The notes under the pieces are model-generated. The model was not told where the DNA came from, did no database searches, and was given only the letters and a program-made list of their open reading frames with translations. Below are positions 7,888-61,596 of a stretch of DNA of 64,000 bases, piece by piece (the first letter of the stretch is position 1; every line of letters begins with the position of its first letter). The translations under genes and the position numbers were made by a program. Source of the stretch: Schmidtea nova (taxonomy: Eukaryota); the NCBI GenBank assembly GCA_044892505.1, contig CM097882.1:494078001-494142000 (forward strand), written 5' to 3'.

Positions 7888-8054
7888 AAATAAATGTATA
7901 ATAGTTGATCAACTTGATTTGTTTGTCTGTGGTATGTTGGAAAATAAATAGCAAAGTAAATTAAACCGATTCATTTTGTGCTACAGGTACCCCGAAATTG
8001 GGTTTACCCTAGCAGAGTTAGAGGAGCGCATTATAAAGGGACCGAGAGAAAGCC

Positions 8055-27800: not shown

Positions 27801-29225
27801 TAAATCGTAATTAATTGTTATTAAAGATTTATCGTCACAGCTATTTTTATGGAGGTGTTATGCTATAATTTTTAGAATTTAGCTAATAACCATATTAATT
27901 GTAAATTTCTCTACAAAAATTTACGTTTCGAATTTTATAAAATAAAAAATTTCTAATATAATAATAAAATTTTTGACCTGTAAATTTTATAAATCCCAAT
28001 ATAATTTCTTATTTTAAAATCTCTAGGAAAAATTTTTTATTTATAATTTTTATATTATAATTTTTTACATAACATAGTATTTATAAAAGTAAATTTTTAT
28101 TTTTATAATCAAAATCCGAAAATTTTATTCCGTAAAATTTATACAATAATAAAATTTTTATTCACACATTTCTTCAAAATTAAATTATAAAATTTAGCAA
28201 AAATTAATTTCCATATATGGGTTTCTGAAAATAAGGCATATATAAAAATTCAAGTCGATTCTTTTCGAAACTCTCCAATATTCAAAATTCAATATGCAGT
28301 TCCATCATCGAGCATAACTCTTTAAGCATTATTTAGTATGACATTTTTACTGCTCTTTGCGCGGTCATTAATGATCTCTTATATGTTAACTTTCTAATCG
28401 ATTTGCGAATTCTTTCATAGCGAAGTAAAGACAACCTTTATGGAGTGAAGGCGAATAATGAGCTGGAAATTTCGTGCTGGAAATTTTTTTGTAGAAAAGA
28501 CATTGATGGATGAATTAACGTTGATATTTTGTTGAAGTATCAGTTTTTAATTGCACTGTACGTTGTAAAATATAGTTCAAATAAAAATACATTAATATAG
28601 ATTGATTATCATTAATATGAAAAACCTTGCTCTTGGCCAAGCCACTGTTCCTCAATATAAGATGAAGTGATCATGGATGTTTAGGCTTCACCTGAGGCGG
28701 AAAAATGGGCTGGACAGTTACGAACCGAACAGCAATCCACTCAGGCTACTTTCATCAGTACAGCTCGAAGCCGGACTGATGTCAGAATGTAAAGAAGTGG
28801 TTTTAATAAAATACATAAAAAATAGACGTATATATGATAAATAACAATAAAATGATATTAACTACTGAGAACATGTGACGAGATTAAATAAAAATCTGAA
28901 AAGAAAAATTATAATTTTCATAAAAGAATACATAACATATCATATAATAATACATAGACGAAGGTTAAAAATAATTAAAATACCTAGGGTAGCGAGGGCA
29001 TGATCTCGCGGGCCTTTACAATTATGTAACAAAATCAAGTTTCTTAAGAAATTATTCGATTAACGGCTGCAAGTAATCTTCTTCTCGTATTATTCTGGTT
29101 ACAAAGCTTGTTCTCCTTCGGTATTGTACACACATAATAATAATATAACTATATTAAATTTCATTTAAAAAACAAAATAATATAAAAACTAAAATTGTTC
29201 ATACTAAAAATTTATTAAATCACAA

Positions 29226-29780
29226 TTATGCGTATCGTGCATTATCAACTCTCCAAATTGGAGTAACCACTTCCTTTTTTATCAATCTTATATCCTTGAA
29301 TAATTATCTTAACGAACCAGTGTTCTTGATCCACGAATTCAATAGTTTGAAAAGCATCATAGAACCGAGTTTTTTTTGTTATTGATGTACATCTTTTCTT
29401 TAATAGTAATTCACATTGATCTTTGAAAATAATTTATTTAGTGCCATAATATTTTCTTTATCGATAATTACAGCTAGACTATCATACATAGACTTTGTCA
29501 ATTTTACTGAATAAGATAATCGAAACGGAATTTCTTGAACCAAAAAATAAATTCGGCTATCATAGTACATCTGGACTGGTTTTACCTCAGTCGGGAATAT
29601 TTTTTCTTCGCTGATATAAAATTTTGTTTTCGTGATTGCATTTTATAGGTTGTGACAATATCTTAAAATTGTCTTTGTATTTATACTGATTACTGTATGT
29701 AATTATCCAATCATAATCATACATTTGTATTGCACACGTTATGCATGTCTTTGTTATGTATTTGTTGTATGCAAGCATGT
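29226..29780 (-). pseudogene. Decayed ORF-X, copy A (Polinton-like remnant, unknown function)
   Basis: CAIQMYDYDW..NQYKYKD...WFVKIIIQGYKID / KEVVTPIWRVDNARYA* (one frameshift). Homologous to 35135-39050 and 56626-57230. Confidence 0.6.
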
Positions 29781-29895: not shown

Positions 29896-31160
29896 TGGGC
29901 CAGCTAAACAGAGAAAAGTTAAATAAACCTATAATAATTAAAACAAAAAGAGAAAATGTAAGATAAGAAAGGGGAATATTAGATTTAAAAGAAAAGGGTA
30001 ATATAAATAAAATATAGATGAATTACTGGTAAATTATAAATAAAAATAGATAAATTGAGGAGACTTCCAAAATTAACCGGCATAAGAGACACCTAAAAAC
30101 AAATAAAATGTAAATATTAATAATTAAAACAAAATAAAAGTACTTTTTATTAAATAATTGTTCTGAAAAGCCGGACCACCTAGAAAGAATCGAATCTAAA
30201 AAATAAAAATTAATTAAGTAAACAAAATAATAATTGGACCTACGGTATAGACAATCAAACCTGATTGGTCAAGCTAGACCAGACAGATCAGTATATATAC
30301 TGATCATAAATTCAGTCAAATAGAAGATAAGAATAACAAGTTTTAGACAACAGACTAGTATTGACACAAACTGAGACATTTAGATCAATTGCGAATTTTA
30401 CATTGAAACCTATACATTGTCACATTTCAACGGAACTTGGACCCAATCACCAGTTTTCGGATCAATAATCTTGAGCAATTTTTAGTTTGATTTATGTATA
30501 TGCTATTCATGATTTTGTCATAATAATTACATTTGTCATATGAATTATATTTCGTATTAATAATTTTGTTTTCTTAATCTTTATCATACAATTTTATATG
30601 CTAATTTTGTGGTGTTAATGAATTGAATTTTAGAACTTAAATTATGAAATTTAGTGCACCGACTGGGAGCTATAGGTTCCCAGGGTGTCAGTCCGCGTCG
30701 TGGGGCTTAGAGGCTCCACACACGGTAGAGAAATCAATAAAAATAAATTAAAATCTACAGGATTGCACATGGGACACAAAGAATCGAGGCAAACATTTCC
30801 GTTGCGGATAGCAGTGAGTAGGCGAGGGCACTGATTTGAATGAAATGTGGGGAACCAGAATAGACCCGAGAAGCGTTATACGTTAACAAATTTAAATCCG
30901 AGGCTGTTTTTATAGGTACATTAACCCTTCTGTATTATAACCCGACTACAAATAGTAAATTTTCAGCGATGAGAGCCGACAAATAAGCATAATTAAATTA
31001 ATGAAAATATATGTTATTTTCGACTTAATTTCCTCGTCATCAAAAGTGACCTAGTACCTAAGGGGTATAAGTGAAATTAAAATTAAACGAGCGAGGAGAG
31101 ATAATATTAAATTTAACTAATCTACTGTTATAAATGATAAATTTATGATCATCCAGAAAA

Positions 31161-31685
31161 ATGACAAATCGGAAGTTACAAAACAGAAAACGGAGAGTAG
31201 CCAGGACCGAGAATCAGTGGGGCTGGAAAAATGGACATCTAAAGCGGAACCGAGTCCGGGTCAGTCCGCTAAAGCCCGCTCCGTTCGAGATTATTCAGCA
31301 GGTTCACCAGAAAATGTGGGCCTGGAGAAGGGAATTAGAGACGACATGCCCATTCACGGTATGGGATCACCCACGTCATCACGTGTGGTACCAAGGATGT
31401 GCCAACTGGCCCATAATTCCGTGTGAAGAATTTGAGAAATGGCACGCAGAATGGTTTATCCTAATGTTAGACGAACGTGGTTTCCCGACCTTCGTCATCT
31501 ACTGGGGTTACATTCCGGCCTCAACGTTCAGAGAACTTGGAATCGTGTTCAATATCGCGATTCGACCACTCCGGGAAGCCGAAAAAGAAGGCCTGAAGAA
31601 AGCTGAAAATGTCACTACCGACATTAATACCAATCTACAAATCCGAACCATATTCTTATATCGGGGAAAGATGTCTGACGAATAA
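31161..31685 (+). CDS. ORF-A homologue (174 aa)
   Basis: APFEIIQQVHQKMWAWRR / WYQGCANW / WFILMLDERGFPTFVIYWG...FRELG aligns with copy 1 APIPIVRQAHRHLRRWRR / WEGDAEW / WFIQMTDDAGQPRWILCSG...FYGLG. Confidence 0.72.
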   Translation: MTNRKLQNRKRRVARTENQWGWKNGHLKRNRVRVSPLKPAPFEIIQQVHQKMWAWRRELETTCPFTVWDHPRHHVWYQGCANWPIIPCEEFEKWHAEWFILMLDERGFPTFVIYWGYIPASTFRELGIVFNIAIRPLREAEKEGLKKAENVTTDINTNLQIRTIFLYRGKMSDE

Positions 31686-31931
31686 TTTAATTTAATAAAT
31701 TTTTTTAGCAAATGTGTGTTCTTTAAATCATTAGATCAGTAACTAATTACAATAATTTAAAACTTCTGGAAGTAGTAATGAAATAAATTAATCAATTTAT
31801 AAAAACCTAATAATTAATTATATTAGAATTTATGGTGTTCATTTCGTACGTTATCTCTAGTATTTATTTAAATAAAATATAGTCGTCGATATAGTTACCG
31901 GTGAAATAAAACATTATAATATTCAGACCTA

Positions 31932-32519
31932 ATGCATTCTACCGAAAACTCCAAGAAAGTTATAAACCAAGTGCAGGAACGGAAGATGAGGGATCAACAG
32001 CGTCAAATCAAGCGACTCACGGTCGCGAACCAGGAACTAAAAACGCGATGGTTCTCTCCCGGACAGATGAAAAGCCAACTGGTAAAAATGGAGCGGCTAC
32101 AGGAAACGTTAACGGAGACGAAGACGGAGCTCGACGCAGTCCAGAGAGAATTACGTAACTATCTAAACTCAGTGACGAGGAGTTACATAGACACCGAACT
32201 GCGCGCATTAATCCGGCCAATTACAACTCAGCGATGGACCCAGAATAAATACCAGGACATTGCAATTGGAACGGAAGACGGACTTATCACGTCGCTAAAT
32301 TCTACTATGGAAGTTCCTCCCGCATCTCACAACAGCCAAACAGAATCAACAGTTCTCACACCCGTAGGCGGTCAACAACAACGAAGGAACCGATTAGGGT
32401 CACGACAACGACGTCGTCGACGAGAGTTCGCAAGACGGATGAACGCACAGATAGACCACCTAGATACGCTAACGGAGTTGGAGTTAATAAATGAAATTAG
32501 CTTGGATTTTATGAAATAG
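31932..32519 (+). CDS. ORF-B homologue (195 aa, intact)
   Basis: Coiled coil, WFSP, ELRNYL, LIRPIT..RW, RRNRLGSRQRRRRREFARRM..ID.L..LTE. Confidence 0.78.
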   Translation: MHSTENSKKVINQVQERKMRDQQRQIKRLTVANQELKTRWFSPGQMKSQLVKMERLQETLTETKTELDAVQRELRNYLNSVTRSYIDTELRALIRPITTQRWTQNKYQDIAIGTEDGLITSLNSTMEVPPASHNSQTESTVLTPVGGQQQRRNRLGSRQRRRRREFARRMNAQIDHLDTLTELELINEISLDFMK

Positions 32520-33260: not shown

Positions 33261-33650
33261 TTATTGTTGTTCTTCGTCGTTTTCTTCTTCTTGTTGTTCA
33301 TCGTTTTCAACAACTTTGTGACATTCGTCACAATCTGGTGATTCGAGTGATTCATCGCACTGTTTTTCATAGCCAGAGCAATCACATTCGATAATTGATT
33401 GTTCATCTATCGGCTCCGGAGTTGAGTTGGGCCATGTTTCTTTTTCCATCTCCTCATCCTCCTCGACAATTTACTTCATATGCATTGTCTCAAATTGATT
33501 GAGGGTATTTCGGAGAACCCACACCTGAAATTTGTGGATTCTATCGACACAGTGCCCGCATTGATAGGCGCATAATATATGTTCCGTCATATAGGGCAGT
33601 TCGTTGTTGACATCGGCCTGGTGATCCAGAGCTAATAAATGTCAAAAAGT
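33261..33650 (-). pseudogene. Decayed Cys-containing ORF-Y, copy A (Polinton-like remnant)
   Basis: LDHQADVNNELPYMTEHILCAYQCGHC resembles IDHLLNFNDDLSSYCANIVCAYKC at 39420-39775. Acidic C-terminus. Confidence 0.5.
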
Positions 33651-33933: not shown

Positions 33934-34890
33934 ATGAACAAAAAAAGAAAATCGTTTTCACTTAAATTTAAAATGCAAATTATCAAAGAGTATAAACCCA
34001 ATATTTCTGGATGTGGTTTTATGGCATTGGCTAAAAAATATAATTAATCGACAGCGACAATCCGAGATTGGGTTAGAGATCAAAAGCAAATTTTTAAATT
34101 ATTGAGTAATAAGGAATATTCAACAAGAGTCTCAAGACGATTGCCGGGTGGCGGCAGAAAAAACGAATTTGATGAACTCGAAGATGAGCTCATCAAATGG
34201 ATTCAGGAAAGAAGCGAGAAAGGTCTTCGTATAAAAGACAAATATATTCGATCTATGGCATTAAATATAAAACAGAAGTATACTTCCGAAAAATATTCGA
34301 ACTTAAAAGTTTCATCTGGCTGGCTTGAAAATTTTAAGCGTCGTCACAAGATGGTTTCGAGATGACAAACTACAACAAGAGTCGTAGCACTGGACAAAAA
34401 TTGTATTTGAGTTTATTCACAAAATACAAAAAATTATATCGGAAAAATAAATTAAACCAGAAAACATTTTAAATATGGACCAAGTTCCGAGATATTTTGA
34501 GGCGGAACCAAAAACCACTATAACTTTGAAAGGAATTCGACATTTTGTGATGCGCAAATCCAGCAGTTCCCACAAAAGATTCATTGCAACATTTACAATC
34601 GCGGCTAATGGAAAAATATTGAAACCGCATTTGCTATTTTCAAAATTGAAAAAAATCCAAAAGTTCAGAATGGGTGTTTGGTTGATGTAAATGACAACGG
34701 AATGTGGAGTTTTGATATATTAAAGAAATACATGGCCAATGTAATTATGAGCAGGCCACAGACGAGTTTCTTTCGTGAACCAGTTTTATTGGTTATTGAT
34801 TCTTATGCGTCGCACTTGAAGTTAACAGCTACAAAACATTATGAGAAATACAACATTTTAATGGAGATCATCCAACTGAAAATGACATGA
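33934..34890 (+). mobile_element. Decayed pogo-like transposase (HTH, CENP-B HTH, DDE_1)
   Basis: KRKSFSLKFKMQII, LPGGGRK..LEDELIKWI, SSGWLENFKRRH, NMDQVP, VLLVIDSYASH; several stops and frameshifts. Confidence 0.85.
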
Positions 34891-35782
34891 TTATTACAAT
34901 CATTAATACAAACATGATTTGTGGTAAATATTTCGAGAACTTAATTTTCAATATAAATCAAAATTTAGTACGATAAAAAATTACTTACCTTACATTCTTT
35001 AATAGTAGATTTAATAATTCTTAAAACAATCACTGCACAGTACAAAAATAAATTATCACTGGTCGCTATATAAAAACTGTTAATTTTAAAAGAAATGCAC
35101 AAGTCACTATTTAAAAGAAACCAAATGAAATAAACTAAACATTTATTAAAATATATTTAAGATTTAAAGCAAATCTAGCGCTATAGATTCTCCAAATTGG
35201 TGACATAACATTCTTGTGATCTACTTTATCCTTGAATTGTAATATAAATAAACCAATTTGAATGGTCTTTATAGTAAATTGATTTAAACACATCATGATA
35301 TCGGCTGTTACGATTGTTAAAGAATACAATTTCATTACTAGTCAAATTTTTATTGACTTTCATCAGAACTTTATTAACAACAACATGCTGGTGCGTTGGT
35401 TAGATGGACAACTGAGATCATTTGGATTTTATACGTTAGGGTGATCTCGCCAACATAAAAACATATCCCCGCTGACACCCATGATGTATCCCTAACTACT
35501 CATCATGTTGGTACTGTGTCAACGTTGTGAAATGACAAGGCAGGTGAGCAACCTCGCGGTTACTATTCCTTTGTTTATCCACGGGTCCACCACTACCGAT
35601 AGAAGGTTTTTGTGGATTTCTTTCGGTCCCTTTATCATGCGCTCCTCTAATTATTCTAGGGTAGACTCAATTTCGCGCTACCTGTAGCACAAAATGAATC
35701 AGTTCGATTTACTTTACCATTATTTTTTCAATCCTTCCATCGACAAGCAAAACAAGTCAACTACTTAAATATACATTTATTT

Positions 35783-36340
35783 TTAATTCAATAACACCGA
35801 AGGATTAATAACGTCCAACAACTGTTTCTCGGTTAGCCCGCTTAATAGATCCACCTCAATACCAAGCCTTTCAGCATACGCCCTACGCTCACGTCGCTTC
35901 TTCGCCCCCAAGCGATTTCGGCGTTTCGTCCGCTTTGACCCTTCTCCCGGTTTCACCATCTCTGGGGTGGTTGTCGAAGTACCGGATTCAATTTCTGTCT
36001 GGGTGCCTGTCGTTGTAACCACGGTATCTATCCATCGGTTGAATGTACTAACTCGCATTAGTGGGCGCAGTTGTTGGGTGATGAATTCCTGGGTGGATGC
36101 CTGTAAATAGTTATGCAGCTTCAATTTTACTGCCGCCGTTTCCCTCGTCTGCTCTTCGGCTATCCGTTCGGCGCGATATCGAGCTTGTAATATAGATTTG
36201 ACCCGTTCCGGGTTAAACCAGGTCGTCTTTACTAAATGGAACTCATCGTTTAACTGACGCAATCGGCTTTCCAACACTTTAATTCGCGATTTATGTTCTC
36301 GGGCTTCGATTTTGTAGTTCCGGGTGCTAGGTTTATCCAT
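35783..36340 (-). CDS. ORF-B (185 aa, intact)
   Basis: Near-identical motifs to the joined copy 1 ORF-B. Confidence 0.8.
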   Translation of the reverse strand: MDKPSTRNYKIEAREHKSRIKVLESRLRQLNDEFHLVKTTWFNPERVKSILQARYRAERIAEEQTRETAAVKLKLHNYLQASTQEFITQQLRPLMRVSTFNRWIDTVVTTTGTQTEIESGTSTTTPEMVKPGEGSKRTKRRNRLGAKKRRERRAYAERLGIEVDLLSGLTEKQLLDVINPSVLLN

Positions 36341-36743
36341 CTAAAGACAAAAGGATTTTATTTATGTCTACATTGTAGTTCGCTACGGGCCCTTCACTTC
36401 CCCTTGTCACTCAGAATACTACCTCGTCACGGTTCTACTTATCCTTTGCTAACAGATGTCCCTTGGCAAAGTACTCCCATCATTCTGATCCTATTCACAT
36501 TCTCACAGACAAACACATTCCCCTTGAACCCATTCACGCAACCCAGTTAGTTACACGCAATCACTGGTTTGCAAACATTACCGTAGTGTCACATTATCGT
36601 ATAGCTCCAATCAACCATATTGAACTCATGCAGACAGAATAAACTCACTCAACCATGCAAACAAATCGATTTCATCAACACGAAGGCTTAATATTATTTA
36701 TTAATCGGCTCACAAATCACTACAAAGTGTCAGTATACTCCGT

Positions 36744-37302
36744 TCAGCAGCATCCATGAAAATCCAGGAGGTCCTGGTCGAGTTGCCGTTCGTCCCGCCC
36801 GGTTCCATCCGGTAGGTATATCTCGGGACATGGATTCCAACATAACCGATTTTTATGGGCGAAGACCTCCCATAGCCTCGCATGATTCTCTTGCGATTGG
36901 GTGTTCATATCCGCATTGCCGGGAACATGTAGGTACGGTCGTCTCTTTCCAGATACCCTACATCTCGGCTGGTCCATAAGAAGGTACCCGAGTCGGTAAA
37001 AATCGGATCCCCGTACGGAGGCATCACTGATTACCCATATTGGTTGATTTTCGGTATCCTCAAGTTGCATTTCCTCGGTCGTGTCCATCCGGGGGTATCG
37101 CCCAGTCGGCGTCGCCTTCCCAACGTATGCGAAGTTTGAAGGATTCAGTTACTGTCCTGGTTGACGGGTCGACATGCCCGCGGATCCACGCTCTTAGGCG
37201 TCGCTCGGCCGATTTTCGTATGTCATTCGGGATGGACGCGGAATCCATTATCTGCCAGCCTCGACGGGTATGGCCCTGTCGTCGTATCCTTTGGGGTTTC
37301 AT
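36744..37302 (-). pseudogene. ORF-A of copy 2, one frameshift
   Basis: Frames 37060-37302 (LRIRWEGDADW) and 36744-37088 (FYRLGYLLMDQPRC, RLWEVFAHKNRLCWNP) match copy 1 ORF-A. Confidence 0.78.
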
Positions 37303-39419
37303 TATCTAAAGTTATTGATAAAAAATCGGCTAGCATCAGAACAGTCGTTTGTCATAACGGGGTGCATACAATCTTTCATTCGACTGAAATTGAAGTCAGC
37401 ATACTCACATCACGCATGTAACCTTTCTAGAAATTCTAAAATCAAATTACCTGGTGGTTTTTTCTTCTTCTTTTCGTAAATCGAGGTGGTGTTAATCTAT
37501 TGCTCACCTGATCGTTGACATATATATGCTTACCCACCTACAGATATGATTTTTGGTGGTTATATGATGGTAGCGAACGTTATTACGTCGATTTTGACAT
37601 CAGCCATCGATTGTTATTGTAGGCCGGTTATAGTATCGCCTCTCATTCTATTTCATTCATTTTTACATCGGCAATTTGGATTTACTTTCATACTGCAACA
37701 TACGCTCTTTCATGCAAATCCGCTCACAACATCATTCAAACAACTTGTATGTAGATCTACGGGGTTGGATTGGGGTATTAGAGGTGTAAATTCGTCCCTG
37801 ATAACCTGATTCTGGGTGGGGTATGTAGTATCGTAGCTCCTTTGTCCTCATTATTAATTCTCATATCCGCTTATGGATAATAGTTAGCTACATGGCCTGG
37901 GTTGTTGTCTATCATCTACGTTCTCGTTTGTCTTTACTTCCTATCTTTGTTCTGTGTAAATTGGTCATAAGAATGAACTATGTGCATCCTTCCCCTCCCA
38001 TTTAATTAGTACACTTATGGTCTCGCCGCATCAGCACCTCGTATAAGAATATGTTGTGCCGAGAATCCCATCAGGCCGTTAGGCCTTCGGGACGATCCTT
38101 ATGGATTTAAATATTATTATGAGGGTTTAAAATAAGTAACAATGAAATCAAATATACCTTTTATTTTCGGTACCGTTACAGTTCTTTGATCTCAATAGAT
38201 TTCAATTCACACTAGTAGGTAAGATAATTCGCTAGTGAAGTAACACTACCAAATTTCGCTGTAATAAAAAAATGACCCTCTCTACTGATTTTACTTCAGT
38301 ATTTATACTACATTGGTGTTGTTGGTCGGCCAATCAGCATCGAGTAGGTGTGTATTCATCGCTACTCATTTAGGTTTGTCAGTTTTTCTGTATAATTTAA
38401 TTCAGTGAGTTGTTTGTTTACTCATGCGGTAATTTTCTTTTGTTATGATTTATTTGATTTTAGATCTTCGGTGATGTCCGCCCACATGCTGTCATATTTT
38501 CAGATTTATCTGATTCGCATGGGTGAGTTTTTAATGTTACTTCATTTTGAATTATTCTTTTGTTGTTTTCAGATTCAGCCGCATATTGCTGACTAGTTGA
38601 TGATGGTAATTTATTTTTGTTGTTCTTTTTGTGTCAATTTATTTCGTTGATTTTATATTGCTTTTCAGATGATGACTGATTTGCCTGGCCCAACAAACAT
38701 ATTGTTTATATATTTTTCCCATCAAATTTGAATATTGTGACTTAACTAAATTGACTGGGTAAAGGAATTTGAATTTAATTTCCTTTTCCAAGAAAAATAT
38801 ATCATGTTCATGAAACTTTTGATATTTGGTTTAATTTCTTTGAATTTTCATTTGACTCAAATATTTTCTTAATTGAAATCAGTTTCTGGAAACGGAAAAT
38901 TGATTGCATTTTATGATGATAATTAATTTTGTCCTTGTATTTATACTCGTTATTTTTCATGTGCATCCAATGTAATTCGTGCATCTGAATTACACATGAT
39001 GTATGTAAGTTTATGACCTGTGTGCATCCATGAGTAATACCATGCTTCACATCTCTATTACAAATGATATTTAATTATAGTTTCAATGAGTTTATTAATT
39101 ATAAAATCTAATATCTAAAATTACTTTTTAATATTCTATCAAAAAAATTACTAGATGTACTATATCAATAAACACAATTTCTAAAAATTACTTTTTCACT
39201 AATAAAAACAATAAGATAAAAATTTTTGTCAAATACATACAAGTCTTAAACAGTAAAAACAAGTTTTAAACATGTACTAAACAATATAAAAACTATTAGT
39301 AAAATTTTAAATAAAGATATACAAGTCTATAATACAAAATAACAATAAACAAAGACAAATTAATTTTACTAAATAAAGATTCAAAAACAATTTCCAAACA
39401 TTTAAAATAAAAACAACAA

Positions 39420-39775
39420 TCAAATTCACAAGGTTCTCAGCTCCTTTTGAACAGCCATTTGTGATATTTCTGCATTACTATAGAGAGCTATCACATTTAT
39501 AGGCACAGACAATGTTAGCGCAGTAGCTTGATAGATCATCATTGAAATTGAGTAGATGATCTATCAGGACTTCATTGAGATCAATGCTGGTGACAGCTTG
39601 GATCTAATACAGCAGAAGCTCCGGAGCGCAATATTACAAGTTCTCGCATCAGTTTCGTGTATAAATGATCCATCTTAGAAATGATAACACCCATCAGTTT
39701 ATCTAAAACAAATGAGAATGTTAAAAAATATCTATTAAATAATCTAAGCTTACCATTAGAATTATTTAAAGACAT
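39420..39775 (-). pseudogene. Decayed ORF-Y, copy B
   Basis: IDHLLNFNDDLSSYCANIVCAYKC, with internal stops. Confidence 0.5.
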
Positions 39776-39870
39776 TTTGTTATAAATCTAATGAAAATGA
39801 ATTCATTATATACTAAATATTTCAACACACCATCATCCAATCAAAATCAAGTATTTTATTAGGTAATTAT

Positions 39871-40310
39871 TCAATGAGTAATAAAAAATTCTACACCATC
39901 AATCATCGATTTAATGTCGTTAATAATTTCATCAATCAAGACTTGAGAGTTTGATGTTTTTATACCAAGTATAACTCTTAAAAACTGTTAAATATGTTGA
40001 ACATATCTCAATGCCGGAATTATTTCTGGTTCATAAAAATATGTAAGATTTCCTGATAATTCATGCAAATTGACACATGTTCCAATATCTTTAATAACTG
40101 TAATTGATTGTATTTGCAAATCACTTATCTCGTATAATAAATTTCCAGCTTTAAGAGAATTTTTACATCCATTATTCTACATCTCCCTGACTTGAAAAAT
40201 ATAATTGCATACTTGCCGCTTCTATCTACAATTTGTTGTGTTTTACCTTTATGAAATTTCATATAGGAAACATAACATTTTCCTTTGTAATTTATGTTGC
40301 ATAAAGTTAT
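39871..40310 (-). pseudogene. Divergent TATA-binding-protein (TBP)-fold gene, frameshifted
   Basis: Manual translation across frameshifts: CNINYKG...YAIIFFKSGRCRIMG(C)K...DLQIQSITVIKDIGTCVNLHEL...FYEPEIIPALRY...VFKS..VILGIK. This parallels TBP TALIFSSGKMVCTG...DFKIQNMVGSCDV...SYEPELFPGLIY...IFVSGKVVLTGAK. Confidence 0.7.
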
Positions 40311-40389
40311 TTAACTGATTATTTTTCAAATACTTTTGCAAAACGTATGACAATGAATTAAAACAAATATAAACAAGTAATATCTTAAA

Positions 40390-41032
40390 ATGGAATTAAG
40401 AAATGATACAGTTTATCAAATTGTTGGTCCTAGTGAAAGTGGAAAAACATTATTTGTAAATTATTACAATTAAAATTGTTCAAATCAAAATTTAACAAAA
40501 TATATTGGCATAGATGAGCTGATGATGAAAATGGATCGACTCAAGATCAATTTTGTAAGATAAAAATGACTATAATAAAGGGTTTCGATAAAAACTGGTC
40601 ATCTAGATTACGACAAGGTAATGTAATTATAATTGATGACTTGTATCAAGAAGAGAATAAAGAAAAGAAATTTAATAATTTATTTACTAAAATCGCTAGA
40701 CAGTGTCACAGTTAAATTTATTACACAGAATTTATTTCGCCAAAGTGGCAGTCATCGAACTCGTAATTTGAATGTTCAATATCTAGTTATTTTTAAAAAT
40801 CCTAGAGATGCCAGTTATTGATTCTCTTGCAAGACAGGCTTACCATAATAATCGGAATTTCTTGATCAATGTATTTCAAGATGCAACTATAGTCTTACAT
40901 TGTTATATTTTTCTTAATTTTACTCAACAATGCAATGATGAATTACGTGTTAGAACTGATATTTCAACAAAGAAGGAGCCATGGTTTATAAAAAAAGTTA
41001 AACTCGTGTTCAAAATTAATCATGAAAATTAA
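40390..41032 (+). pseudogene. A32/FtsK-like packaging ATPase of Polinton/Maverick type, frameshifted
   Basis: Walker A VGPSESGKT, Walker B VIIIDDL, ITQNLF, NLNVQYLVIFKNPRD, LARQ, CYIFLNFTQQCNDELRVRTDI. Confidence 0.85.
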
Positions 41033-42214
41033 AGCACGTGTCAAACATCCAAAATTATCGAAACTTATAAAATTTATTAAAAAGATTCGTGAAACAATAA
41101 TTCCATTATTATATACAACCTAGTCTATTTGGTTATAATTTATTATGTCTAATTATTTATATTATAACCTTTTATTTGTGCTTTGGAGGAATTGTAGTTA
41201 TTGATGATCTGAGAAAGAAAATCGAGATAAATATTGTAATATGAAACAATATAGATCGAGATCTAATAGTTTTCTTTCAATTAAAAATAATACGAAAATA
41301 CATTTGTTAAAATTTAATTTATAAATAAAGCTTATAGTAAATTTATTGATTTTGTTTTAATGCCTTTGTAAAAACACGATCGGGCGGTAGTTTTATTAAT
41401 CAAAATTTGATAATAAATTAATGACTAACGAAATAACAAAAATTAAGCCATATTCACATCACAAGATTTTTTATTTTATTTTTTAACGCAAAGTAGATTA
41501 AATGACAACGCAAACGGAATTTTAGGAAGAAAATAAAACATCATACAAAATGGAAAATCCCAAAACAAGACTCACGCTAACCGAGGTATTGGTGTATTTA
41601 ATTAATATTTATACAGTATATTATTTTTAATTTTTTTTGGAGTCATCCCTATCCTTTTAGATATTATCATGATTATTATCTAAATTCACCCGTAAGTTGA
41701 GGTTTATCTATAGAATACCAGACGGAAACAGAAATCACACGTCTTTTATCGAAGTCAAGTAAATTGGAAGCAGTGGTCAACACAAAGTCCCAAATTGGGC
41801 TATTATCTACAGTGTACAATAGCAACTAGTGAGTTTACTGTAAGATCGTAAAGTTACTCTGTATTAAAGTAATTACGATGGGATGTGTGCTACTAGAAAA
41901 ATCCAAATGACTCATTTTGGAAGAATAAAGCCTGAATTATCGATACGATTCCTATTGGATTGATCACATCTTCCAATTATTTGAAATCATCCCTATCATG
42001 CCATGAATTGTTGCTATTATATATTTTATAATTTGCTAACTTGACTTAATTTAAATTCTAGATATTACATCAAAATTAATTTGATTCAAATAAACGAATT
42101 ATCAAATGCGAAATTTGGAAATTAAAAAAAATATTTTAAATAATGCATTCATCTTAAGAATAACCAATAAGAAAATGAAAAATAAGAAAAATCAATTTTT
42201 AATATACATACAAT

Positions 42215-45729: not shown

Positions 45730-46748
45730 TATTGTTATTAAGAGAGTATATCGTCGGGACAGGAAATGGGTGTGGCGACATGGATAGAAGTTATGTTAAT
45801 AAAATTAGATATTCAGAAATACATAAATACTCAAGTAAAGATGGATAGTGAGATACTAGGAAGGTTAAAGCAAAAGATCTTGGACCTGGAAAGCAGTTAT
45901 TTTCCGCCGGCCGAGATGAAAAGAGCAAGAAATAAGTTAGCACGCACAACCGTGGTCATCGAAGACCAAAGGATCGAAATTGCAGCCTTGAAAATCGAAT
46001 TGAACAACTGTAGGAAGTTGACATCCCAGAGGTTTATCGCTGATAACCTAAAGTACGTAATCAGACCAATAACGTTGACAACATGGTTCTCAGTGACAGA
46101 ACAGGAGAAAGAGAGTGCTAATGAGATAACCGATGGAATACCCCGAACACCCAAGAAGAGGCGCAAAACGCATGCGCAGCGGCGTCGTCAAGCGAAAAAG
46201 CGACAGGAGGAAGACCTCAAGAAAACATCGACCAATTCAAGCTCCACGGATATTCTAAAATAACGGACTAACTGACTGAATTGATGTCACAAAAATGTCA
46301 TAATGATTAAATATATGTATTCTAAAATTGCAGTGATTGTTTTGTATAGTAAATGTAGAAATTTCGTAGTATTTAAAATTAATAGTTAAAACCTTTTCCG
46401 ACGAATAAACGAGTATGAAAGATTCGTAACGAGTTGAGAGAAACACCCGAAATTAGTGACCAGCGAATGGGTGAGTGGGGAAAAACCAAGATGACCTTCT
46501 ATCGGTCCTGTAGAACTCGAACGAGCGACAAATCGAGAGTAGTTATGCTAACGAAGCTCACCTGTCGATTTGCGATCGGCCGTCATGCACAGTACCAACG
46601 TAAATAACTAGGGTATTTACGGGTGCGTGGGCGGTAAGGATTTTATGTGCGTGTCCAACCCTAGCAAGAGCATAACCAGGATATAGCGAAACGCAGTGAA
46701 ATTGGAAGGGTTACCATTTGAGTTTATTTCTAACGAGACACGCCAACA
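45730..46748 (+). mobile_element. 3' part of a TG...CA family member (copy 4)
   Basis: ORF-B homologue, ACCTTCTATCGG 46494-46505, GCTCACCTG 46556-46564, CAGTACCAAC 46590-46599, stem CTAGGGT/ACCCTAG, end CGCCAACA. Confidence 0.78.
45766..46263 (+). CDS. Diverged ORF-B homologue (165 aa; probable start 45841)
   Basis: YFPP, LKIELNNC, VIRPIT..W, KKRRKTHAQRRRQAKKR align with ORF-B WFSP, KLELHNY, LIRPIT..RW and the Arg-rich tail. Confidence 0.65.
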   Translation: MGVATWIEVMLIKLDIQKYINTQVKMDSEILGRLKQKILDLESSYFPPAEMKRARNKLARTTVVIEDQRIEIAALKIELNNCRKLTSQRFIADNLKYVIRPITLTTWFSVTEQEKESANEITDGIPRTPKKRRKTHAQRRRQAKKRQEEDLKKTSTNSSSTDILK

Positions 46749-47690: not shown

Positions 47691-49247
47691 GGTTCTTGTT
47701 TGATATTTCCCCCCCCTTAATTGGACTGTCAAATAATTTAAATTTAAATTTATAATAGAATTATACCAATCTATCAGCGTCTGTGTGCGCTGCTATTTTC
47801 TTTATTCGCGTCTGTGTGCGCGTTCTAGTTTGATGTGGATTTTTAATGGAATTTGGTAATTCTGATTTTTAGATTTGTAATTGATTTATTTTAGATTTGA
47901 GATTTAATTGGATTTTAGGATTTGTTTAAATAGTCGAATTGGGAAGTTTTAATTCTTCTGGAAATTTGGATTTAGTTTCGATATTTTTTGGTTCGGGAGT
48001 TATTAAAGTTGAATTTTTGGGACCTTTTGAAATGCTTTCTTTGTTTAGAGCTGTGATTTGAACTTATTGGAGTTGATTCAAAAAATACGATGAGATTTTG
48101 GGAAGTTGGGAGAGGCGAAATATTAGACAGAAATATTTCCCCCCCACTTAATTGGACTGTCAAATAATTTAAATTTAAATTTATAATAGAATTATACCTA
48201 TTTATAAAAGAGTTATACCTACCTATTTAATTCAAAGTTTTATAATAGAATTATTGATCTACCTATGAATGCAAACAATCTATTTGAGCGAACACGGACT
48301 CCGCTGTCAACACTACTACTTTGTCAAGAATTGGGATTGATACCCTTGAATAAACTGTGCACTGTTTGTGGGCAACAAAAAGACTTAGTAGCATGTACTA
48401 AGACCAACTCCCCTTTCCGCTGGCGTTGTAAACGGCCTTGCCGTCTAGAATTAAGTATTCGTGGCGGGACTTTCTTTGAGGCTTCAAAGCTCGATATCAA
48501 AGAAATCCTGTTTTTCATCTACTATTGGGCATACGAGGAGTGTTCCTTCAAAAAGATTCGTCGTGAATTGGGCTGGCACTCACAAGCAATTGTGGATTGG
48601 AAATCGTATTTGCGCGAGGTTTGTGCGCTGCAATTAATGCAGGAAAATTCGGTGATTGGTGGTGAAGGACACGTAGTTCAGATTGATGAATCTTTATTCG
48701 TGCGAAGAAAATATAATGTGGGACGAATGCCCAGGCAACAATGGGTTTTCGGTGGCATCGATTCCACTAAAAAAGAATGTTTTCTGTTGTGTGTTCCTCG
48801 GCGTGATACAGCGACGTTACTGCCAATAATACGTGATAGGACCGCCCCAGGAACAACTATTGTAAGCGATCTATGGGCAGCATACAATACTATCGGTTTG
48901 GAAGGATATAATCACTTGACAGTAAACCATTCGATTAATTTCGTTGATCCCGTCACTTTCGCCAATACGCAAAGAATGGAGAATATGTGGATGAGAGTTA
49001 AGCGTAGAAATAAAAGAGAATGCGGAACGAGTTCTGATTTACTCGATACTTATTTGCAAGAATTCATGTGGAGAGAAAGATTTGGAGGTGATACCTTTAA
49101 GCGTATTATTGACGCAATTAAATTTGTCTTGCTGAATTAATACTATACACAACTATTTTATTACTTATTAAATAAATTTAAATTGCGTATGTTATATTTT
49201 TATTTTATAATTTAATTTTAAGTGGGGGGAAATATCAAACAAGAACC
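47691..49247 (+). mobile_element. Merlin (IS1016/ISXO2-like) DNA transposon, apparently intact
   Basis: TIR GGTTCTTGTTTGATATTTCCCCCC at both ends; perfect 8-bp TSD TAAATTAG. Confidence 0.93.
48265..49140 (+). CDS. Merlin/ISXO2-like DDE transposase (291 aa)
   Basis: N-terminal Cys finger, VQIDES, QWVFGG, IVSDLWAAY, VNHSINFVDP, NTQRMENMW, YLQEFMWR; no stops. Confidence 0.92.
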   Translation: MNANNLFERTRTPLSTLLLCQELGLIPLNKLCTVCGQQKDLVACTKTNSPFRWRCKRPCRLELSIRGGTFFEASKLDIKEILFFIYYWAYEECSFKKIRRELGWHSQAIVDWKSYLREVCALQLMQENSVIGGEGHVVQIDESLFVRRKYNVGRMPRQQWVFGGIDSTKKECFLLCVPRRDTATLLPIIRDRTAPGTTIVSDLWAAYNTIGLEGYNHLTVNHSINFVDPVTFANTQRMENMWMRVKRRNKRECGTSSDLLDTYLQEFMWRERFGGDTFKRIIDAIKFVLLN

Positions 49248-51895
49248 TAAATTAGTAACTTCAATAGTCTAGATACTTTCTTAATCAATTATCAAAATAA
49301 ATCAAAATCAACATTAAATCAATTAGATTGAATTATAATTCTCAACTAGATGGAGGATTTTTAAAAAGATTTAATTTGATTCAATAAACTATTTTAAACA
49401 ATAAACGTACTTTTTTCATTTTTGATCCTTCTGATTCCTCATTTGAACTTTTTTTTAATTATCAATAAGTTAGTAATTATATATCTAAGCTTTGTGGATA
49501 TTAAATATAGAATTATTGTTTTTATTTGAAAAATGTCATATAAATGAATAAATTGTTGCTAAATTCGAAAATTTCCAATTTAAGAAACATAAATATTAAC
49601 ATATAACAATTTTATAATTAGAATTTAACAATAGCGATTATATTTAAAATGTATCAACCTGTGAAAAGAGTATTTAAACAAAGCAATATAAACAAAAGTT
49701 TCCTTTGTCAAAAGTTTTCTATATTAATTTTTTTTAAATATTAAAAGAATTAAGTTAAATATTTAAAATGATATTATTATTATTTAAGAATACATCAAAT
49801 TTTAAGAAATTTTGTTTAATTGAGAAATTTTAATGTTATTTGAATTCTTAATTCAAAATTTATAATTAAAATAATCTGGAAATATATTCTTTAAAAATGA
49901 TTGTTATGAAATATAATTTTTGTAATTTACTTTTGTTATTAAATATTTAATAATGTTGAATTCATATAACTCTTTAACTGAAAATATTTATAATAAAAGA
50001 AATGTAAACTGATTATCGAAAAAAATTGTGTAAAATGTAGAAAGCAAAAAAACTACAGAAAGTTTTCTATCGTATTTTTTAATACAAAAAAGTTTTCATT
50101 CATTTAAAATTTAAATTTTAAAGTTAAAAACTTTAATTAACCTTTCCAACCTTTTGTTATGACCAACTTTTGTTTTAGATATTAACAATATGACACTAGA
50201 ATAAATCAGTGATCAAACAAATGCGCAATTCATTTTGTTGGGCTAGAATTCTCAGATGTTAAGGCAAGTTGGTATCAAAAATTTGGTAAAAAGTGCGAAA
50301 TGCAATAAAGAGATTATTCAGGAAAGAACAATTTTGGGAGAATATAAGTTAAACGGAAAATTAGATAAATAAATAAAGAAGATGAAGTTGGGAAAACCAA
50401 AGAGAAATAACAATAGCTAAAATCATTAAAACGGAACAGAATATCAATAGATTGAACAAAATCCAACATGGCGACCACAATGGACTTAATTAATTAAAAA
50501 TCAGATTAAAATAATTTTGGACAAAATAATTCATCCATTACAAAAAAGAAAAAAAGTAAAATAAAGCAAACCATTAATTGGTTAAACTAAACCAAATGAA
50601 ACTTAACATTAATTGGCTGATTCACCATCTTGAAAACTATATGAGCCAACTGTAAGAACAATACTTATCTAACTTTTCGAAAGTAAAATTTCAATCTTAG
50701 TTTTTATTGAATCGATTTCGAACTTTTAGCAAAACTTTCGATATTTTGTATTTGAACAAGGAAATTTTGAAATTTTTTTGAATTGTTACGCGGAAAAATA
50801 GGCGGCGTAACCAATATATTTACAAAACAATATTTAGTGAGAGGTCTTTCGGAGGGATTAAGGTTCAATTGTAGCAAAATTTTCATAAAATTAAAACAAA
50901 CAATTAAGAGAGGACTCACCGTATCTTCTGTACTTAAGCGTTAAAACATTTTCAATTGATGATTATGGACTTCGTCTTCAATCATACTGTTGTTTATAAA
51001 TATGGGAAAATTTATAAAATATTCTTAAAATATATTTTTAAAAAAAGAATTTGATTTTTAAAGATTAATTTATTTAAATTAAATAATATTTTTATCGTTT
51101 TAAATCTTTTGGCTATTTATAAATTTAACATGCATTTTTAAAAAAATTGAATTATTTGTTTCAAAATTAATTTGTTGAGGATACCTAAATAATAAAAAAT
51201 ATTGTAGACAATTTTAATAACTTGGTGGAAAATCGATAGGGTGATTGAAAGAGCATTCTGGAGCTTGGAGAAGAAAACGGGAAAGCGAAAATTGAGAAAT
51301 GAGGAAAGGGTAACCAAATAAAAGAAATGAAACAATAAAACAGAGAAAGGTCACTTAAAATTAATAAGTACAAGAAAACAAAATTGGAATTCCAAAACGG
51401 AAACGAAACCGGTATCTTGGCAGCTGTCAAAAATAACACGGGAACTGGGAAAAACATTGTGAAATATTTGTGACAAAAAGGAAAGAAAGTAAATCATCCC
51501 GAGGGCCGAGCGGCTATTGGTAGCACAGGAGCCAAAAAAAGCAAATCATCATAAGTGCTGGAGAATGGCAAACTTTTTTAAAAGGGAGAGACTACAGTTT
51601 TAGACAGAAATTTGTGTAGAAGTTTGCGGAGTAAAATTACTGCGAGAATTTGTACCAAAAGTTTTATGACAAGAATTTATTGATAAATCGATTATTGAAA
51701 AATTTATTATTGAAAAATTTATTAGAAAATTGATTATTGAAAAGTTTGCTAAGTCGAAATTCAAGTCAAGGCTGTTAGAATATGCATATATATTTGAATT
51801 TTCTCTAAAAGATTGATATCAAATATATACTTTGTTTTAATAAATAAATTTACGATCAACGTGAACTTTTTAAAATATGATATTACGATAACAAT

Positions 51896-51910
51896 TGGCG
51901 ACGAGGATGG
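51896..51910 (+). promoter_or_regulatory. Primer-binding site, probably tRNA-Ser(GCU)
   Basis: TGGCGACGAGGATGG, 2 nt after the 5' LTR, complements the ...CCAUCCUCGUCGCCA 3' end of eukaryotic tRNA-Ser(GCU) (from recall). Confidence 0.7.
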
Positions 51911-54900
51911 AGAAAATTCAATTACAAGATTCAGATACAATCGAAGACTGGTTCGATAGACTAGAACTGTTAATGGCAACAGACAAGAAGTATACGAGTG
52001 CCAATGCAACGGCACATTTGCTCACGTTTGCTGGAGCAGAGACTTACAGTTTAGTCAAGCAGTTACCCTTTCCAAAAAAACCAAAAGATCTGTCAACAGA
52101 AGAAATCAAGAAGTTGATAATAAGACATGCTGTACCAGTTAATTTAGAAATCACAGAGAGGAGCAAGTTTCACAGTTTGATAAAGGAATCAAACGAGAGC
52201 AACAAACAGTTTTAGCTCAAGGTTCTAGCTCAAGCGGCAAGAAGGCAATTTTGGAGATCAGATGGAGATACAAATGAGAGACAGAATCATCGCCGGAATT
52301 AATAATACCGTTTTAAAGAAGAAGCTTTTGGAAGTCGATGACACTTCATACCAGAATATACGCGAGATCGTAGAGAAATCAGAAGACTTGGATCGCGCCA
52401 TGGCGAATGAAACCAATTGTCTATATTCGAAGAGAAATTATTCCGATAGGCTAGGCCAGAATTCAGAGCCTAAGGATAATATGAAGCTGAAAGGATCAGC
52501 AAACATGAGCTGCTTCTCATGTGGTGCTCCACATCTCAGAAACAATTGCAAGTTTCGCAGTTCCAAGTGTTACAACTGCAACAAGATGGGTCACATATCC
52601 AAAGTCTGTAGAGCTCAAAAACGAAAAGGGTTACTTCAAAGCAACTATTTGAAGTATAACGAAGATATCAGCACAAGTGAACAGTTAGCACTGTGGTCAG
52701 GTTCAAGCCAATTAATTCAAGTTTTAGATTTTGGCGAAAGAAAAGTAGAGTTCATTATCGATACTGGGTCGGTAGTTTCATTTATGCCATTGAAATTAGC
52801 GAAAGAAATTGACAAGAAGTTTAAGTTAATCAATTGTGATATGGTAGTGAAAGGAGATACGGGTCACAAACTAGAAATACTTGGAGAATCTTCAATGACG
52901 ATAAGACATGATGATAATTTAATAACTGTTAAGTTTATCATTACAAGAAACAGTCCTTGCATCTTAGGGCTCAGACACATCAGAAAGTTAAAAGAAACAA
53001 TAGTGTTGCAAACAGAGCTGGCAACAGATTTCAAAACATTGATAAAACAATGTGGTCAGAATAAAGGTGGATTCAACACGGATCCTGTGAATTTTGAATT
53101 AATGTCAGGTGCAGTACCGATATTTGAAAAAGTAAGACATTTGCCTTATGGAACTCGAGAGGGTGTGAAGAACGCACTTGAAGAACTAGAAAGAAATGGT
53201 ATCATTTACAAAGTGGAATCTAGTGCATGGGCAACACCTATGGTTGTCGTAAGTAAGAGCAATGGTAAATTTAGATTATGTGGTGACTATAAAGTCACTG
53301 TGAATAAATTTCTTAAGCCGCCAGCATCAGTTACTTCACTGCCGGAGGATATATTTGAAAAGACGACTGGTGCTAAGTATTTTAGCAAAATCGACTTGAA
53401 AGACGCATTCCTGCAGCTACCGATTTCAAAAGAAGCACAAGAACTTACAACGTTGCACACGATGTGGGGATTATACACCTATAAATATCTACCGTTTAGA
53501 TTGAAGAATTCTCCCGGTTTGTTTTAAATGTCAATAAACGGAATTATAGAAGGGTTACAAGATTGCTATGCGAATCAAGATGACATACTAGTATTCGGTG
53601 CAACAGAAAAAGAACACGACAAGAATCTTTATCAGTTACTGCAAAGATTTATGAAGTACAACGTGAAGATTAATGTGGACAAGTGTATCACGAAAGTCAA
53701 AACATTACCATTTCTGGGATACATCATATCTGAAGACGGAATTATTCCAGATGAAACGAAATATAAACCAATAGCTGAAGCACTGGATCCCAAATTTCAA
53801 GAAGAATTGCGATCATTGCTAGGATGTCTACAATATTACAGCAGATTTATAAAAGACTTTGCCGATAAGACAAGAAAGCTACAATCAATATTAAATGACT
53901 CTGAATTTAGATGGAACTCGGAGAATTCAGAATCGCTCAAATCGATTATTTCAGAAATAGTGAAGGCTAAGCCACTGAAGCCATTAAGGCAGGAATCAAA
54001 GATTGAATTGATAATGGACGCTTCTGAGTTTGCTATTGGAGGAGTACTAGAGCAAGAAGGTTGTCCGGTCTATTTCATATCTAAGAAATTAACCAAAGCG
54101 GAATCAAACTACTCTCAGACTCAAAAGGAAGCTTTAGCCATCGTATGGGCCGTGGACAGATTACACAAGTTCTTATTTTGTAGACCATTTGTTATAATAA
54201 CTGACCGTGCCGCATTAAAGTACATTTTCGACAGTGGCTCATCGGCTGCCAAGACAACCTCAGCCATGTTGCAAAGATGGGCGCTAAAGCTTAGTGCGTA
54301 TAATTATGAGATCATTCATCGAAAAGGTAAAAACGTCCCACAAGCAGATTACCTGTCTCGATATTCAATGCTCAGTGAGGCAATTCAATCAGATTGTTTA
54401 TTTATCCAGCCACTCCCAATACCAAGAGACAGTCTGATTGAGGAATCTCAAAGAGTCTATGGGCCGATTTTCAAGGCTGTCAGAAATGGGTGGAACACGA
54501 GTCACAAAAAGAAATTTCCTGAGCTATACTTAAAGCGAGATGAGATATCCATTGCGGCAGATGGAATCATTTGTTGGAAAGAACGTAGTCTCATACCACC
54601 AAATCTACGAGAAGAAATGATTAAGCATCTACATTCCGGACATATCGGGTACGAAAAAATGATTTCATTGACCAGACTCATATGTTGGTGGCCAAATATT
54701 GACTCAGATGTCAGACAATTTACTAAAAATTGCACAAATTGCATCACGAAAAAAGTCAATCTGAACAAAGCATCCTGATTGGAGTCCTTGGCCCATAGCC
54801 TATCAAGCGTGGCAAGGAATACATGTGTACTATTGTGGTCCATTCTTAAGTAAATATTATGCTTTAATAATAATAGATGCTCATTCAAAGTGGCCGGAAG

Positions 54901-61383: not shown

Positions 61384-61596
61384 ACTATAGATCAAATTTT
61401 TTTTTATAAACAATAACACAATATTTCGGCACATCCTTTATCAAGTGTGTATTTGAAATACTTGAAATACTTGTGTACTTGAAATACACACTTGATAAAG
61501 GCTGTGCCGAAATATTGTGTTATTGTTTATAAAAAAAATTTGATCTATAGTTATTATGAGAATTATTGATAATAATAATAAAAAAAGATCAAAGGT
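61384..61596. repeat. Foldback/MITE unit: about 70-bp inverted arms with a short gaaatact-repeat spacer
   Basis: actatagatcaaa...gtgtgtatt / aatacacac...tttgatctatagt. Confidence 0.85.

Follow-up and report, generated by a model that had tools for sequence, protein, structure and literature searches.

Does a broken reading frame with motifs of the TATA-binding protein (TBP), lying beside a packaging ATPase gene of Polinton type, represent the remains of a genuine mobile-element gene, and if so, what would such an element do with a TBP of its own? The frame is located in a 64,000-nucleotide stretch of the Schmidtea nova genome (contig CM097882.1; hereafter the window), for which an initial annotation, made from the letters alone, proposed a Polinton-like virus lineage that carries its own divergent TBP, possibly to redirect host RNA polymerase II (Pol II). 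Six-frame translation recovered the frameshifted, motif-bearing ORF on the minus strand (40307 to 39871). The motif IIFFKSGRCRIM lies within one minus frame, although a frameshift near 40170 must be crossed to reach the final G of the annotated 'IMG'. A second frame holds LQIQSIT and YEPEIIPALRY; around 39976, VFKS and VILG are split between frames. Relative to one natural copy, the TBP-like gene contains indels near 40170, 40000, 39976, and 39895, together with a stop at 39990, and has no ATG at the start position. The spacing of about 80 bp to the ATG of the ATPase gene on the opposite strand was reproduced (ATG at 40390, TBP-like start at ~40307, gap of ~82 bp); the corresponding gap is ~90-100 bp in 13 other copies. 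ORF-Y and then ORF-X follow downstream on the minus strand, as annotated (Table 1). The ATPase gene is also broken, a point absent from the initial annotation: it has a stop at 40515 as well as indels near 40457, 40702, 40811, and 40961.

Table 1. Features of the element copy in the window (positions count from the first letter of the window).
Feature	Position	Strand	Evidence or remark
Short TBP-fold gene, broken copy	39871..40307	-	tblastn with natural copy: E 8e-49, two frames at 78% and 62% identity
TATAAACAA box, candidate late promoter, upstream of ATPase	40368..40376	+	word kept in window
A32-type packaging ATPase gene, broken (natural copies 207 aa)	40390..41001	+	tblastn 70-91%, three segments, E 3e-68
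Box position before pX-like gene, degenerate (TATAAACAA here in natural copies)	40987..40995	+	
pX-like gene, first 28 codons	41022..41104	+	tblastn 71%
ORF-Y, broken, ~90 aa, Cys-rich, without Pfam family	39434..39694	-	
ORF-X, first part; inside terminal inverted repeats in natural copies	38696..38990	-	
ORF-X remainder and part of terminal inverted repeat	34913..35385	-	blastn 83-84% to copies
3310-bp insertion, unrelated, solo-LTR-like, splits ORF-X	35386..38695	-	TG...CA ends, 4-bp target duplication

The copy of the element spans positions 34913 to 41104 and ends 28 codons into the pX-like gene, which we take to occupy the PZ/GasderminX position. Position 41104 is a truncation point, where blastn alignments to four copies stop; the true terminus is missing from the window copy, and the inverted repeat of natural copies extends past 34913. 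Beyond the ~3.3-kb insertion, ORF-X continues at 35384-35168, and a second copy of the insertion, with its own 4-bp duplication, lies at 5158-8284 of the window. Identity of the window copy to the 19 other copies in the comparison is 79-85%, which makes it an old fossil. The locus is a dead and truncated Polinton/Maverick copy that contains a pseudogene of a short TBP, and the value of the find rests with the family to which the copy belongs.

That family is well represented in the genome of its host, an AT-rich animal. The region in the window matches at least 39 other genomic places at 78-82% identity (among the best 40 of 4,105 candidates scored), and open frames from elsewhere in the genome score on the Pfam TBP family PF00352, which indicates that the ORF in the window did not arise by chance. 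Open TBP-like frames of 145-156 aa are abundant and were intact in 14 of the 19 loci that were fetched; among the best 150 of 14,002 genomic candidates scored against PF00352, 8 rows are host loci. In four copies read with their flanks, one strand comprises, in order, ORF-X, ORF-Y, and the TBP-like gene, and the other comprises, likewise in order, genes for the ATPase, a pX-like protein, integrase, penton-like, core-like, and major-capsid-like proteins, protease, a 139-aa ORF, pPolB, and a second ORF-X, with broken or missing genes in each of the four. The names pX-like, core, and penton are presumptive and follow gene order. ORF-X, possibly an OB-fold/SSB protein, had a pLDDT of 28.7 in a single-sequence structure prediction.

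Several of these genes have matches to the enzymes expected of a Polinton. The profile PF03175 (DNA_pol_B_2) scored above its cut-off in four pPolB ORFs with an Endonuclease_7 insert (from copies B and C and a neighbouring element), with pPolB being absent from the truncated window copy. The integrase matched PF00665 (rve; E 1.7e-9) and its gene carries a 44-nt GT-AG intron-like insert, the ATPase of a natural copy matched PF04665 (Pox_A32) at 29.4 bits (cut-off 22.8), and the protease matched PF00770 (Peptidase_C5, adenain) above cut-off (E 2.4e-5). The ATPase has dN/dS ratios of 0.03-0.08 between subfamilies. The 406-aa and 348-aa capsid-like ORFs had no Pfam or PDB sequence match, and the 406-aa family is connected through metagenome contig L138 to an ORF that matches PF21738 DJR, a link of ~21% identity (E 1e-8). 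Inverted repeats of 0.7-1.4 kb were identified in three of the four copies, and AG...CT ends with a perfect 6-bp target duplication were seen in the single copy followed to both termini. Terminal inverted repeats that end in 5'-AG...CT-3' and a 6-bp duplication are given as hallmarks of Polintons in the available part of PMC8097293. The element is a Polinton/Maverick.

Evidence for a TBP fold came from sequence profiles, from structural databases, and from modelling of open copies, all of which upheld the initial assignment. An open copy matched PF00352 with an E-value of 8e-15 (54.8 bits, cut-off 22.9), and all 35 PDB sequence matches were TBPs; the best of these scores are archaeal, which reflects the matching of two lobes. 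An AlphaFold2 model built from a 67-row alignment had a pLDDT of 97.5 and aligned with human and yeast TBP at Z 12.5 and rmsd 2.8 over 145 of 156 residues. The top five structural matches were all TBP chains (Z 10.6-12.5, rmsd 2.8-3.0, 143-145 residues), and viral TBPs ranked first in a search of BFVD.

The model predicts a two-lobed saddle in which the strands of the N-lobe are present and no helix of four or more residues occurs within residues 1-80. Among 173 family rows (a set from which 6 two-lobed or odd proteins were left out), the H1 and H2 segments of the N-lobe have median lengths of 37 and 22 residues versus 47 and 34 in canonical TBP, and are thus 10 and 12 residues shorter, with the C-lobe segment at 47 versus 48. 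Three intercalating Phe residues are kept in these rows (F38 in 99%, F97 in 100%, and F113 in 100%) and the first N-lobe Phe is replaced by Pro in 98%, which leaves three of the four Phe that characterize cellular TBP. Also kept are the Glu pair of the C-lobe stirrup (E93 in 94% and E95 in 99%) and the Pro that follows the C-lobe Phe (P98 in 87%). The basic patch of N-lobe helix 2 is missing, the segment being 22 rather than 34 residues long and without a helix in the model. As described in the accessible portion of PMC7221094, the Glu pair contacts TFIIB/TFB and the helix 2 patch serves TFIIA, TAF1, Mot1, and Brf. Polar residues occupy positions 6, 44, 68, 70, and 111 of the concave face family-wide (84-100%), and these changes on the DNA face, together with the loss of the first Phe, could also mean a different ligand. 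Overall identity to canonical TBP is ~25%.

Homologs of the short TBP were not confined to the genome in which it was first noticed. The family comprises 82 close homologues, most of 144-165 aa, and 109 representatives at E-values up to 1e-10; an IMG/VR search that used the TBP-like alignment yielded distant TBPs only (E 2e-6 or weaker). Among 26 metagenome or GTDB loci, 12 contain a Polinton marker gene and 4 contain only an accessory gene common to the element; the remaining 10 are all 3 kb or shorter, and no marker was seen in them. One 23-kb contig (L138) holds pPolB, TBP-like, ATPase, integrase, penton, and capsid genes together. In a 109-row tree, which comprised 182 columns and has long branches, the short family formed one side of a branch with an SH-aLRT support of 97; its 49 rows include a single long-branch viral sequence. 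Host TBP/TRF, archaeal TBP, and all but one of the 15 IMG/VR TBPs fell outside it, and 13 of the 15 IMG/VR rows formed a separate branch. The 109-row tree did not single out a donor lineage. A clade uniting the element proteins with two host TBP exons was rejected (p-AU 0.0007), and thus the grouping with host TBP paralogues that the initial annotation had named as counter-evidence was seen in neither the tree nor the AU test. The short TBPs are a distinct, Polinton-linked family that is present on metagenome contigs as well, in agreement with the proposal of a Polinton-like lineage with its own divergent TBP.

The arrangement of the two genes was less constant than their association. Linkage of the TBP-like and ATPase genes, in head-to-head order, was observed in 18 of 19 loci and in 14 of 15 further loci of the window's genome, and the order is a local trait of the subfamilies of this genome. 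Among the seven metagenome contigs that contain both genes, none is head-to-head: the TBP-like gene precedes the ATPase gene on the same strand in six, and the two are divergent with one gene between them in the seventh. In a further arrangement the TBP-like gene follows a capsid-protease block, and in L121 and L123-L125 it adjoins ORF-X. The head-to-head pair as a conserved unit is ruled out by the metagenome contigs.

Comparison of subfamilies yielded dN/dS ratios of 0.10-0.26 for the TBP-like gene in 19 of 28 pairs, the other 9 being saturated, and the gene is under purifying selection. This bears on whether the gene is merely a recently captured, decaying fragment of host TBP without a role for the element, as the pseudogene in the window might lead one to suppose. 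That explanation is refuted by the dN/dS ratios and by the AU test rejecting a clade with host TBP; the low identity to canonical TBP and the presence of the family in distant Polintons also speak against it, and we assign it virtually no likelihood.

A single word, TATAAACAA, is conserved across the divergent intergenic region and occurs on the ATPase strand in 13 of 13 copies; further genes, both in the window's genome and on distant contigs, have it upstream on their coding strand as well. Counted within 20-120 nt upstream of the start codon, the box was found before 34 of 44 virion-module genes versus 2 of 36 others (Fisher 3e-11), a p-value that is overstated since windows of one contig or of related subfamilies are not independent. 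The count skipped windows with less than 120 nt upstream and covered genes outside L129, L130, L134, and L149, and gene starts and class labels were set after the box had been recognised. By gene, the box preceded ATPase (8/10), pX-like (7/7), core (5/5), major capsid (6/6), penton (3/8), protease (2/3), and orf139 (3/5) in the virion module, and TBP-like (1/19), integrase (1/6), pPolB (0/4), and ORF-X (0/7) among the others. The 10 of 44 virion-module windows without a box include those of the ATPase genes of L137 and L138.

The frequency of the box exceeded that of the comparisons made: it occurred on the opposite strand in 2 of 44 windows, shuffles gave a mean of 1.3 and a maximum of 6 in 2,000, and 104 anagrams gave a mean of 1.5. 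When the genome's own copies were left out, the box still preceded 19 of 27 virion-module genes versus 2 of 24 others (p 9e-6). Six of those boxes are intergenic and the others fall in two codon phases (10 and 3), which argues that the box is not an artefact of protein coding. In the virion windows, position 7 is C in 34 of the 39 sequences that start with TATAAA, and position 8 is A or G; the distance from the start codon is mostly 25-45 nt on the coding strand. A single base separates TATAAAC from canonical TATA, and the box may be readable by host TBP.

A co-resident Polinton lineage without a TBP provided a control. This lineage has a DJR capsid and a distant A32 ATPase, with no TBP-like match in six frames, and the box preceded 0 of 15 of its virion genes (three copies of one lineage); TATAAACAA was present before one unassigned 127-aa gene in 2 of 2 copies. 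Searches of viral contigs with capsid or ATPase queries gave no relative that might serve as a further control. Because the control is one lineage and the windows are not independent, these results are suggestive of a link between the TBP-like gene and the box.

The occurrence of the box in the TBP-less lineage raises the alternative that another factor of the element or of a helper virus serves the box, and that selection maintains the TBP-like gene as an accessory directed at some other target, such as host genes or Pol III promoters via Brf. ORF-Y, orf139, and other ORFs have no assigned function and might supply such a factor, and the first Glu of the stirrup is also contacted by Brf1/2 (available text of PMC7221094). 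However, the TBP-like gene is the one non-core gene common to all box-bearing lineages examined, no metagenome contig was found to carry ORF-Y, the protein lacks the N-lobe helix gripped by Brf, and the intron-like insert in the integrase gene points to Pol II. We therefore give this alternative little credence.

We suggest instead that the short TBP of the element likely binds its own TATAAAC box and would recruit host TFIIB and Pol II, thereby switching on the virion genes. In such a scheme, host machinery would begin by transcribing the replication-side genes and the TBP-like gene, a subset of which lie behind an ordinary TATA box. This early step is weakly supported, since a canonical TATA precedes just 4 of 19 TBP-like genes (0 of 3 in the window's genome). 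The saddle of the small TBP would then bind TATAAAC(A/G), with the intact C-lobe reading the 5' TATA and the rebuilt, more polar N-lobe tolerating C at position 7; such a protein would be expected to prefer TATAAACA over TATAAAAG DNA. The N-lobe of TBP reads the 3' half of TATA. According to the accessible part of PMC12529657, T is preferred at the first TATA position when the C-lobe Phe is followed by Pro, and on that basis the intact C-lobe can be placed on the 5' TATA half. With the lobes so oriented, the rebuilt lobe would face the non-canonical C.

In the third step of the proposed scheme, the kept glutamates of the C-lobe would dock host TFIIB. Given that the TFIIB contact is retained and that the protein has no extra domain, host TFIIB and Pol II would be used. 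A genome-wide search with PF00382 gave 6 matches among 25 candidates, all of host-type TFIIB/Brf, although a very divergent TFIIB of the element could escape such a search; Pfam scans of the element ORFs gave no TFIIB match. The first repeat of the host TFIIB gene is split by an intron. Loss of the N-lobe helix would remove the surface for TFIIA, TAF1, Mot1/BTAF1, and Brf, which would free the protein from TFIID, Mot1, and TFIIA and leave it to act as an independent factor outside host control. The ATPase, capsid, core, and protease genes would then be made late, and the GT-AG insert in the integrase gene fits transcription by Pol II. For the possibility raised initially, that a Polinton TBP redirects host Pol II, a cognate promoter box and the retained TFIIB-contact residues provide support that the initial annotation did not contain. 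It is also quite possible, and we put it forward tentatively, that these features together define a branch of Polintons with a two-stage programme, comprising the smallest two-lobed TBP with its rebuilt N-lobe, a private TATAAAC box, and the shedding of all host regulators, and feeding straight into host TFIIB-Pol II with no viral partner, in contrast to the TBPs of herpesviruses and giant viruses.

The same anatomy could be accommodated by two other functions of the protein. TBP tolerates C at position 7, and host TBP might read TATAAAC as a weak TATA, in which case the element protein would act as a repressor or decoy on the boxes, or as a sink for TFIIB, that quiets the element or damps host transcription. 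We consider this unlikely: while the fold, the kept TFIIB-contact Glu, the lost TFIIA surface, and a box one base off canonical TATA are all compatible with a dominant-negative TBP, so strict a non-canonical base at position 7 is hard to explain with host TBP as the reader, and the herpesvirus precedent is one of activation (PMC12529657, available part). Alternatively, the protein might bend DNA for replication, integration, or packaging, with something else reading the box. Its altered DNA face, the position of its gene among replication-side genes (beside ORF-X in L121 and L123-L125), and a rolling-circle Rep protein as best non-TBP structural match (Z 6.4, rmsd 5.2) are consistent with such a function. 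Nevertheless, a Z of 6.4 falls within the background range, a purely architectural protein would have no need of a Glu pair kept at 94-99%, and the boxes lie at promoter distance on the coding strand, all of which make DNA bending improbable.

Some components of the proposed circuit have precedents, in that viral TBPs with late boxes are already known in herpesviruses and TBPs are known in giant viruses. In the literature covered, which took in the supplement of Starrett et al. in part and lay outside subscription papers and RepBase, we found no account of a Polinton TBP family, its anatomy, or its promoter box. A box before capsid and packaging genes, together with a TBP encoded by the same element, offers a concrete and testable circuit, made up of a single small protein and a single 8-base site, in elements that are believed to be viruses. 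If the proposed reading is true, Polintons would gain their first described gene-regulation circuit, along with direct evidence of a late, particle-making phase; the protein would be a natural case of a TBP with shifted specificity and would represent a third viral TBP design, in which contact with host TFIIB is kept and the regulatory face is deleted.

Comparison with known systems places the element among Polintons, Mavericks, and adintoviruses, with which it shares pPolB, rve integrase, A32 ATPase, adenain, putative major and minor capsid genes, and TIRs (PMC8097293, PMC8502044, and PMC10748475, in their available parts). The HNH/EndoVII insert in its pPolB resembles the pPolB2 type. Unlike other Polintons, it carries a TBP-fold gene and a common TATAAAC box, and whereas vertebrate Mavericks are intronless, its integrase gene has the intron-like insert. 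The initial annotation did not count TBP among the standard Polinton genes. This stands in that no account of the family was found, the term 'TBP' occurring 0 times in the accessible text of PMC8097293, PMC10748475, PMC11161782, bioRxiv 2026.06.19.733378, and the supplement of Starrett et al.; it does not stand in full, since a MELD virus map with a gene labelled 'TBP' is in print (Starrett et al., 2021, PMC8502044, Fig. 5 legend, section on non-animal datasets). The legend label points to a Polinton-related, mid-size dsDNA virus with a TBP-like gene, possibly of the same family; the available text of PMC8502044 contains no family, structure, residue, or promoter analysis of it.

Among viral TBPs, a functional parallel is with the vTBPs of beta- and gamma-herpesviruses (KSHV ORF24 and relatives), which recognize a TATTWAA late box through a polar face matched to the variant box (PMC12529657, available part). 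Both systems have a virus-encoded TBP fold, a polar DNA face, and a variant TATA before structural genes, with no viral RNA polymerase. As described there, ORF24 is a large, multi-domain member of a six-protein complex that contacts Pol II itself and has no TFIIB-contact Glu, whereas the Polinton protein is a bare saddle of ~150 aa that keeps the Glu and is associated with a different box sequence. The TBPs of large DNA viruses share with it the fold, a conserved L5.1 Phe, and the loss of the N-lobe regulatory signature; in the accessible portion of PMC7221094, the first Glu is conserved in ~40% of viral TBPs, which are mostly paired with a viral TFIIB. In contrast, the Polinton family keeps both Glu (94% and 99%), and the PF00382 search found no TFIIB of the element. 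Finally, cellular TBP/TRF (PF00352) has in common with the Polinton family the two-lobed saddle, three of four intercalating Phe, and the C-lobe stirrup E-P-E-x-F-P, from which the family departs in being ~25% identical, in having lost H1 and H2, in the replacement of the first Phe by Pro, and in polar swaps on the concave face.

The terminal inverted repeats of the Schmidtea nova Polintons contain ORF-X (L022/L023 and L028/L030), and each element therefore carries two copies of this gene. The canonical TATAAATA was identified upstream of ORF-X in all three S. nova cases. Additional fragments of ORF-X and ORF-Y were detected elsewhere in the window (see table), and these are terminal relics of other Polintons.

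In a second Polinton lineage resident in the same genome (L301-L306), no TBP-like gene was detected in six frames. Several of its genes have TATAAA 6-23 nt upstream of the ATG. Its gene set also includes one for a 196-aa protein with HTH and C2H2 motifs that could be the lineage's own regulator. One subfamily (L319, L302) has two tandem penton-like genes, each preceded by its own copy of the Polinton box, the candidate late promoter. Among the host loci examined (L201-L205 and L321-L326), canonical-type TBP was identified at two loci, one of which is duplicated in inverted form, together with two TBP paralogues that are divergent and intron-poor; TFIIB-like and Brf-like loci number two each.

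Among the comparison contigs, a 23-kb Polinton contig with TBP (L138) has additional genes for proteins of the KilA-N, C2H2 zinc-finger, and phospholipase A2-like types. A contig assigned to a bacterial MAG (L221) carries Polinton capsid, protease, and TBP-like genes, and eukaryote-type TBPs were identified in three further bacterial MAGs (L245, L247, and L277); these occurrences probably reflect binning contamination.

The window also hosts several other repeats and transposons. A 3.3-kb element with TG...CA ends and 4-bp target duplications resembles a very long solo LTR; it carries an ORF for a 185-aa basic coiled-coil protein and a second ORF that had no Pfam match. The repeats that flank a Ty3/Gypsy-type gag-pol are unusually short for LTRs. 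A near-perfect palindrome belongs to a small inverted-repeat family, and the word of the Polinton box, TATAAACAATAAC, also occurs in the palindrome's arms.

Positions of repeats, transposons, and gene fragments in the window
Feature	Positions	Description
ORF-X/ORF-Y fragments	56243-57157, 58487-58941, 29163-29588, 33492-33578	
3.3-kb element	35386-38695, 5158-8284	4-bp target duplications
Pieces related to 3.3-kb element	near 22041-22489, 31121-32519, 45742-46263	
Palindrome	57824-58301	239 bp
Palindrome family, further sites	4349, 57635-58497, 61384-61584	
Ty3/Gypsy-type gag-pol	51808-55707	87-nt direct repeats
IS1595/Merlin-type transposase ORF	48208-49140	310 aa, open
Tc5/pogo transposase	33950-34890	broken

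The integrase gene of the S. nova Polintons is split by a 44-nt GT...AG stretch (L028:7385-7428), which is also present in L038, and the gene is split at the same place in L033, L310, and L318. Judged from its sequence, this insert looks like a spliceosomal intron, whereas vertebrate Mavericks are described as intronless in a published account (PMC8097293).
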